Shown: piece by piece, positions 1 to 635 of the stretch
How the letters are laid out: each line of letters begins with the position of its first letter
How positions within the stretch are numbered: position 1 is the first letter of the stretch
Virus record (IMG/VR): IMGVR_UViG_2778261344_000012
Reading direction: 5' to 3' (one strand)
Length of the DNA: 14,862 bases
DNA from: a virus
Lineage: Duplodnaviria > Heunggongvirae > Uroviricota > Caudoviricetes
The notes under the pieces: model-generated
Database searches by the model: none
Seen by the model: only the letters and a program-made list of their open reading frames with translations
What the model was told of the DNA's origin: nothing
Translations under genes and position numbers: made by a program

Positions 1-121
1 CAATCTTTGGGGCAATGGAACAAATTGCCGCCCATTGTGAGTCATATTCGCCCTGACTTTCCAGAACCATACGAACTGCCCGTTGACGGACCTCGGGGGA
101 AAAACGTGTATTTTTAGTCAT
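1..121 (-). CDS. IS3-family transposase OrfA, N-terminal 40 codons (partial, continues past window start)
   Basis: Minus-strand translation from the ATG at 121..119 gives [40 protein letters not shown], matching from memory the N-terminus of IS629/IS1203-type OrfA. Not in the ORF track because it is truncated by the window edge. Confidence 0.75.
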
Positions 122-175
122 CCTGTTTACCTCTTTCTCAGGGAGTTTAGTCTCCAGGATTCCCGGGGCGGTTCA
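1..175 (-). mobile_element. Left end of an IS3-family insertion sequence (IS629/IS1203-like), extending beyond the window start
   Basis: Reverse complement of 122..175 reads TGAACCGCCCCGGGAATCCTGGAGACTAAACTCCCTGAGAAAGAGGTAAACAGGA, which I recall as the IS629-type terminal inverted repeat plus leader; it is followed directly by the OrfA start codon (minus strand, 121..119). The element boundary at 175/176 falls inside the integrase reading frame. Confidence 0.75.
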
Positions 176-635
176 TTATCATGGCAAGATGCTTTGCCTT
201 TGTCTGAGTTGATACTGGCTTTGGTTCATAAACAGGCGGTTCTTTACCTTTCCTGATGGCGGCCTGAACTTTCTGTTTCCATATTTCTTTCGTCTTTCTG
301 TTATGCATTCTGCTTACAGCAGAGTAAATCTTTGCCTCCGAGATATCTTTAAGCCTTATACCCTCAAAATGTTCAAGCCAGAACTCAATCCGGCTTTTAT
401 CTGAATCGAGAGATTTTTTATCAGCTTTTTCCTCAAGCCATCTTAGGCAGGCCTCTTCAAAAGTGACATCAGGTAAATCCCCTAGCTTTTCTACTCGCCA
501 GAGTTCTGCTTTTCGCTTGTCGTGCAACTCCTGAGCTTGCCGCTTGTCCTTTGTGCCAAGAGATTCCTTAATTCGTTTCCCGCCCGGGAGCGAATACGAG
601 GCATACCATATTTCATTTCTGCGGAAGAGTGACAT
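176..635 (-). pseudogene. int: Tyrosine-recombinase phage integrase, N-terminal fragment truncated by the IS insertion
   Basis: ORF 147..635 starts [34 protein letters not shown], a typical lambdoid/P2-like integrase N-terminus, but is only 162 aa (integrases are about 400 aa). The last about 10 codons ([13 protein letters not shown]) are read from the IS inverted repeat, so the catalytic C-terminal domain is absent from this side of the IS. Confidence 0.8.

Follow-up and report, generated by a model that had tools for sequence, protein, structure and literature searches.

Several described systems bear on an IS629 insertion in a prophage integrase gene. In O157 Sakai the lambdoid prophages Sp3, Sp11 and Sp12 carry disrupted integrase genes and had been predicted not to excise; after mitomycin C induction, none of the three was among the nine prophages that yielded circular forms (PMC2669165). 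In four O103:H2 strains, other than the one considered here, IS629 lies in the integrase gene of LEE, and the insertion was read as fixing the element in place (PMC12831630). [quoted passage not shown]

The window analysed here is a stretch of 14,862 nucleotides taken from IMG/VR record IMGVR_UViG_2778261344_000012. When window 1-1200 was compared by megablast with 5426 complete E. coli genomes, a single record matched at 100%, NZ_AP038976.1 of E. coli O103:H2 strain 129, and the two sequences are identical throughout window 1-10200, the 10.2 kb compared. The windowed prophage is a DLP12-family lambdoid prophage at tRNA-Arg (argU) of this Shiga-toxin E. coli (STEC) strain. The strain 129 genome was released in PMC12831630, a paper whose discussion does not take up the argU prophage, and RefSeq already annotates the locus as partial integrases and IS3 transposases. 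The reading that we hold with considerable confidence is that an IS629 in codon 154 of intD and a second, inverted copy have divided the gene into three pieces, leaving a prophage predicted to have no functional Int and to be unable to excise.

The interrupted intD of strain 129

How is the locus arranged? From left to right in strain 129 there are tRNA-Arg, an integrase C-terminal fragment, an IS3 transposase (+ strand), an integrase middle fragment, another IS3 transposase (- strand), the integrase N-terminal fragment, an HTH gene, yfdT, and onward into the prophage. Strain 12009, also O103:H2, has a single intact intD of 1164 bp at the same locus. The C-terminal fragment of strain 129 ends 16 bp from tRNA-Arg. 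Some 54.5 kb away, between ompT and envY, 47 bp of the argU 3' end are repeated exactly, at the place where the right end of DLP12 lies in K-12. Both 47-bp att repeats of the strain 129 prophage are intact. Adjacency to a tRNA gene and direct att repeats bounding the element, both found here, are features of an element with an IntD-type integrase.

The window opens inside a complete and apparently active IS629, a member of the IS3 family. Only from base 176 onward does the window match some 350 other genomes (megablast), where the gene is uninterrupted and labelled 'intD: integrase', and the boundary between IS and int therefore lies at 175/176. The initial annotation had recognized an IS629/IS1203-like end at the left of the window and an int ORF that crosses 175/176 and stops within the IS. 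The fuller sequence bears this out to the base, and chance resemblance is not the explanation: window 1-175 is the IRL end of a complete 1310-bp element, the boundary is exactly at 175/176, and the ORF ends with TAA at 147-149. The leftward extension proposed as a check yields everything sought, as the whole IS, the TTA duplication and the remaining integrase sequence are all present in NZ_AP038976.1.

The element at the window edge, which we call IS-B, is 1310 bp long and lies in reverse orientation at 7866-9175 of the strain 129 region (L001). Its last 175 bases are window 1-175 (minus strand), and these agree at 175 of 175 positions with the end of another complete copy in that genome. That copy, IS-A, also 1310 bp, lies in forward orientation to the left of the window, at L001 6056-7365 (NZ_AP038976.1 574902-576211). 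IS-A and IS-B are identical at 1310 of 1310 positions and lie in opposite orientations 500 bp apart. The two resemble a composite transposon, with 1310-bp inverted repeats around a 500-bp int fragment.

The reverse complement of window 1-175 opens with TGAACCGCCCCGGGAATCCTGGAGAC, followed by orfA coding from an ATG at 119-121 (minus strand), and orfA runs off the left edge of the window. The imperfect terminal inverted repeat occupies window ~149-175 (minus strand). In both copies (175 bp of IS-B being in the window) the terminal repeats are IRL TGAACCGCCCCGGGAATCCTGGAGA and IRR TGAACCGCCCCGGTTTTCCTGGAGA, an imperfect pair of the 5'-TGAAC type that matches at 22 of 25 positions. The element encodes an orfA product of 108 aa with HTH_Tnp_1 and an orfB product of 295 aa with rve, and at the orfA/orfB overlap of both copies there is an ALIL frameshift pseudoknot (Rfam; 120.9 bits against a gathering score of 50). 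Overlapping OrfA (HTH) and OrfB (DDE/rve) frames joined by a programmed -1 frameshift are an IS629 feature, and target-site duplications of 3-4 bp are expected of IS629. Both copies have such duplications. Set against the strain 12009 gene, which is uninterrupted, the junctions show a direct 3-bp TTA on either side of IS-B, the right copy at window 176-178 and the left copy outside the window at L001 7863-7865, and a 4-bp GGTG on either side of IS-A. The IS copy is also 99.6% identical over 1310 bp to one in phage JLK-2012 that its depositors named IS629. Judged by these likenesses, 'IS629/IS1203' would be an appropriate name, IS1203 being a close isoform.

What is left of the integrase in the window? 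The truncated ORF, window 147..635 (minus strand), begins with residues 1-153 of IntD, which has 387 residues when intact; these occupy window 177-635, and position 176 supplies one further base, of codon 154. Nine IS-encoded codons, MNRPGNPGD, follow, for a product of 162 residues in total. Its 153 integrase residues are identical to those of intact IntD, in agreement with the original estimate that about 150 N-terminal codons remain next to xis. Intact IntD matches Pfam Phage_integrase (PF00589) at aa 184-355 with an E value of 5.5e-47, and in an alignment with HP1 integrase HxxR falls at 314-317 and the nucleophile at Tyr349. The truncated ORF has no PF00589 match, and with it no R-K-HxxR-H/W-Y catalytic domain; the match of its N-terminal domain to DUF6538 falls below the Pfam cut-off. 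Because the fragment ends before the catalytic domain, loss of Int activity can safely be concluded. On its sequence, the windowed int ORF is a pseudogene fragment of the tyrosine recombinase family, not a functional member of it.

The gene as a whole is split into residues 1-153, ~154-318 and ~319-387. IS-A sits just past the HxxR motif, and Tyr349 is on the third, separate fragment. Taking out both ISs, each with one of its two duplication copies, recovers the strain 12009 intD exactly, at 1164 of 1164 bases, which argues that the insertions were two clean, recent, simple transpositions; by the same reconstruction, there has been no later rearrangement between the inverted IS copies. Deposited phages, Kati and PhiR29_1 among them, encode an integrase with exactly the sequence of intact IntD (100% identity), and the uninterrupted allele is therefore the working form. 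At megablast sensitivity, no second copy of intD was detected in strain 129. In a census of intD, a copy at least 80% full length was found in 1646 genomes, and no genome had more than three matching places; since strain 129 has its three fragments, a further intD-like copy is not detectable there.

Excisionase and the other prophage modules

The excisionase gene, xis, is an apparently intact ORF of 123 aa at window 491..862 (minus strand), directly upstream of int and overlapping the int start by about 145 nt. A small protein with an N-terminal HTH, encoded upstream of and overlapping int, is what would be expected of an excisionase of the P22/epsilon34/SfII Xis type. The product scores 34.6 bits with Pfam HTH_17, above the cut-off of 27, and 25.7 bits with TIGR01764 'excise', under the cut-off of 28.8. 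Deposited phages whose integrases are identical have full-length matches at 97-98% identity; among annotated excisionases, that of epsilon34 is 78% identical over all 123 aa, and the SfII xis product 83% identical over 116 of the 123.

The PGAP annotation treats the xis-like HTH gene as a pseudogene in both strain 129 and strain 12009 ('missing C-terminus', coordinates 770-946; window 491-946, minus strand). We considered whether this reflects a real defect in xis and rejected the idea, as the 123-aa ORF is full length in phages and the epsilon34 and SfII excisionases align with it. The pseudogene call is probably an annotation artefact.

The early and lysis proteins of PhiR29_1, all except Int, have full-length matches in the window at 95-100% identity. 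The cI-type repressor, of 230 aa (window 4742..5434, minus strand), has an HTH and a Peptidase_S24 domain and is intact according to PGAP, and the cro-like protein carries an HTH. The O-like replication initiator (window 6681..7622, plus strand) is a full-length, 98.7% match to the 'DNA replication protein O' of PhiR29_1. The lysis cassette of holin, lysozyme and Rz endopeptidase (window 13578..14748, plus strand) matches the S, R and Rz proteins of PhiR29_1 over their full lengths at 99-100%; its genes essD, rrrD and rzpD are intact per PGAP. The initial annotation had described the immunity, replication and lysis modules as intact, and so they are: within the window they are full length by comparison with PhiR29_1, with cI and cro present as intact alleles of another type. 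PhiR29_1 is otherwise 99% identical, but its cI/cro region has a different allele from that at window ~4420-5790, a sign that the immunity module was exchanged in mosaic fashion.

Three further features of the window may be recorded. A 242-aa plus-strand ORF at window 3694-4422 has a 100% full-length match to a PhiR29_1 hypothetical protein; for the interval 3451-4422, PGAP offers as an alternative a shorter ORF at 3907-4422 and, on the opposite strand, a 'frameshifted hypothetical protein' at 3451-3762. An intact porin gene, OmpD/NmpC-like and of 365 aa (window 11895-12992, minus strand), is carried as cargo, with the Q antiterminator on one side and the lysis cassette on the other. At the right edge of the window the bor gene starts.

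Outside the window the tail genes are in a different state. The tape-measure gene (L006 23612-26092; L007 20861-23341), compared with its PhiR29_1 counterpart, has two frame changes and is 81 nt shorter in both strain 129 and strain 12009. Because it is present in both O103:H2 strains, the defect is probably ancestral to this prophage. In strain 129 only, the gpU (tail terminator) gene is split by two tandem IS66-family (ISCro1-like) elements (L006 16222-22017). From these gene comparisons we conclude that tail assembly was already defective before the integrase was hit. A single window can thus under-report the damage to a prophage, as here the second IS and the broken tail genes lie outside it.

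Order and spread of the insertions

Which of the two IS629 insertions came first? Among the 5426 complete genomes, the IS-B junctions occur in strain 129 only, and the IS-A junction in strains 129 and EL361 only, with identical IS and flanks. Because IS-A is shared with EL361, whereas IS-B is unique to strain 129, IS-A is probably the older insertion and the one that killed the gene, and IS-B would be a later, neutral second hit in a dead gene; this order is a parsimony reading from two genomes. Strain EL361 itself (L005 2060-7182) has accumulated three IS629-family elements in the same argU prophage, in a stretch with about 1.3 kb of unique sequence. These are the shared IS-A, a variant of 94.7% identity at intD nucleotide ~370, and a 1309-bp copy inside xis, 23 bp upstream of the int start codon. 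The IS-B junction of strain 129 and the IS-A junction, found in two of the 5426 genomes, are possible lineage markers for typing.

Insertions of IS629-family elements are found at no fewer than 11 distinct positions in intD across E. coli genomes. Among those that were mapped, eight are simple, with 3- or 4-bp duplications, and four have lost one flank through a neighboring deletion or rearrangement; duplications of 3 bp accompany about six to eight of the IS629-family insertions in intD other than those of strain 129. In 2013C-4974, UTAK-1, CE10 and EPSSH018 (L009, L010, L011 and L012) an IS629-family element abuts a C-terminal intD remnant, and the other flank of the IS is unrelated DNA, with no target duplication. 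Such junctions are consistent with an IS-mediated deletion or rearrangement that removed part of the prophage.

Is intD, then, a hotspot for IS629? We do not regard a hotspot as demonstrated, given that junction queries catch only insertions near the query, that about 1650 genomes carry intD at 80% or more of full length, and that lineages carry tens of IS copies. Simple arithmetic is instructive here: if about 33 IS copies are placed uniformly in 5.6 Mb, some pair will lie within 1.2 kb in about 20% of genomes. We consider it unlikely that the intD of argU prophages attracts IS629-family elements preferentially, or that selection favors their landing there, with the insertions serving in iee-positive STEC as a repeatedly used and partly reversible lock. 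If that were true, the IS629 lock would fix in place a prophage whose cargo (ompT, bor, porin) is beneficial to the host.

Excision, its alternatives and the known systems

The reading that we favor is as follows. An IS629 transposed into codon 154 of intD, making the TTA duplication, and another IS629, inverted, lies 500 bp further in, after HxxR, with the GGTG duplication. Tyr349 is thereby parted from the other catalytic residues, none of which remains attached to the start codon, and functional Int cannot be made. The prophage should then be unable to excise despite its intact xis and 47-bp att repeats, and what blocks excision would thus be the missing enzyme. The failure of Sakai Sp3, Sp11 and Sp12 to give circular forms supports a block of this kind. 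The insertion seen in the window would be a neutral second hit, in a prophage already decaying through its frameshifted tape-measure gene. On SOS induction the S24-type repressor, the replication genes and the lysis cassette would be expected to act in situ, without excision and without infectious particles. It is formally conceivable that a divergent integrase from another prophage acts on these att sites.

How tight is the lock? The view in the initial annotation, that the prophage is probably excision-defective and locked in place, is upheld in the main. The word 'locked' should not be taken as absolute, since iee sequence is present in the strain and IEE promotes excision of IS3-family elements with gene reactivation, so that IS loss and revertants are conceivable. 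The presence of iee was examined with a chimeric query, in which the strain-specific junction was combined with three separated segments (5', middle and 3') of Sakai ECs_1305, the iee gene. Strain 129 ranked first, with four matching places, the junction and all three iee segments, each once. The strain 129 chromosome has these iee segments alongside about 30 IS629-family copies. Might IS629 be lost through the action of IEE, or might another prophage of the strain provide an integrase in trans, so that excision still occurs in a subpopulation of cells? Besides the iee segments found in strain 129, such a leak could draw on the ability of IEE to excise IS3-family elements, which restored lacZ in O121:H19 (PMC9397093), on the commonness of IEE in O103:H2 (PMC9943667), on the cleanness of both insertions, whose removal would restore a perfect intD, and on the precedent of the Sakai defective prophages, which complement one another (PMC2669165). 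Yet two independent clean excisions would be needed, the middle fragment could be turned around by recombination between the inverted ISs, megablast detects no other intD-like sequence in the genome, and the int-disrupted Sakai prophages were without circular forms. We therefore judge a reversible or leaky lock to be distinctly improbable.

Two other readings have still less to recommend them. Assembly is difficult where two inverted repeats of 1.3 kb are identical and only 500 bp apart, and the IS-B junction occurs in a single genome, so one might suspect that IS copies were misplaced in the hybrid ONT/Illumina assembly. A misassembly would hardly be expected to provide perfect 3- and 4-bp direct duplications and a gene that is rebuilt exactly on removal of the ISs; moreover, the IS-A junction is reproduced in an independent genome, and in other genomes eight further simple IS629-family insertions in intD carry 3-bp duplications. 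With duplications this perfect, and with IS-A shared by an independent genome, we reject an artefact, which would be very surprising. As for the truncated protein, arm-type DNA binding by λ-type integrases resides in the N-terminal region, and the 162-residue product retains its start codon, its upstream xis context and the N-terminal region, next to an intact xis. It could be imagined as a functional DNA-binding remnant that, perhaps with Xis, hampers integration or excision of related incoming phages. This is scarcely credible: the junction is unique to one strain, the insertions of other strains fall at many positions, as neutral decay predicts, and the DUF6538 match is below the Pfam cut-off. 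The simple loss of Int by insertion is the reading that we retain.

How does the strain 129 prophage compare with its relatives? DLP12 of K-12 shares with it the argU site, a right end beyond ompT and the lysis gene names essD, rrrD and rzpD, and the two intD sequences are 99.4% identical. In K-12, however, intD is intact and most of the prophage has been lost, whereas strain 129 has a prophage of about 54 kb and a broken intD. The phages PhiR29_1 (PV340556.1), Kati, ev243 and 2G7b have integrases 100% and Xis proteins 98% identical to those of the strain 129 prophage in its uninterrupted form, and PhiR29_1 aligns with 92% of the window at a nucleotide identity of 99%. These deposited phage genomes display the module without interruption; PhiR29_1 and its relatives differ from the strain 129 prophage in lacking an IS, in their cI/cro allele, and in having tape-measure and U genes that are intact. 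A literature search found no paper describing the PhiR phages, and we infer their viability solely from the propagation hosts that their records name.

Insertion of an IS3-family element with loss of gene function has a parallel in STEC O121:H19, where IS600 lies in lacZ; as in strain 129, the strain is iee-positive and the inactivation is in principle reversible (PMC9397093). That case involved a single IS and revertants selected on lactose, whereas strain 129 has two ISs and no obvious selection (PMC9397093). The LEE insertions resemble the present one in lineage, in the IS concerned and in their target, the tyrosine integrase of a mobile element, but they affect the LEE island at pheV in four other strains (PMC12831630). 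Sakai Sp3, Sp11 and Sp12 are likewise EHEC lambdoid prophages with disrupted integrases, in a genome rich in IS629 (PMC2669165); they differ in being other prophages at other attachment sites, and the strain 129 gene bears two IS629 copies. The strain 129 prophage has the merit of being a clean example, as its exact duplications permit the gene to be rebuilt base for base. It records a further step in the decay of STEC prophages through IS elements, of little import beyond bookkeeping. Disruption of mobile-element integrases by IS629 is already documented in EHEC, and strain 129 is an ordinary instance of this known process.
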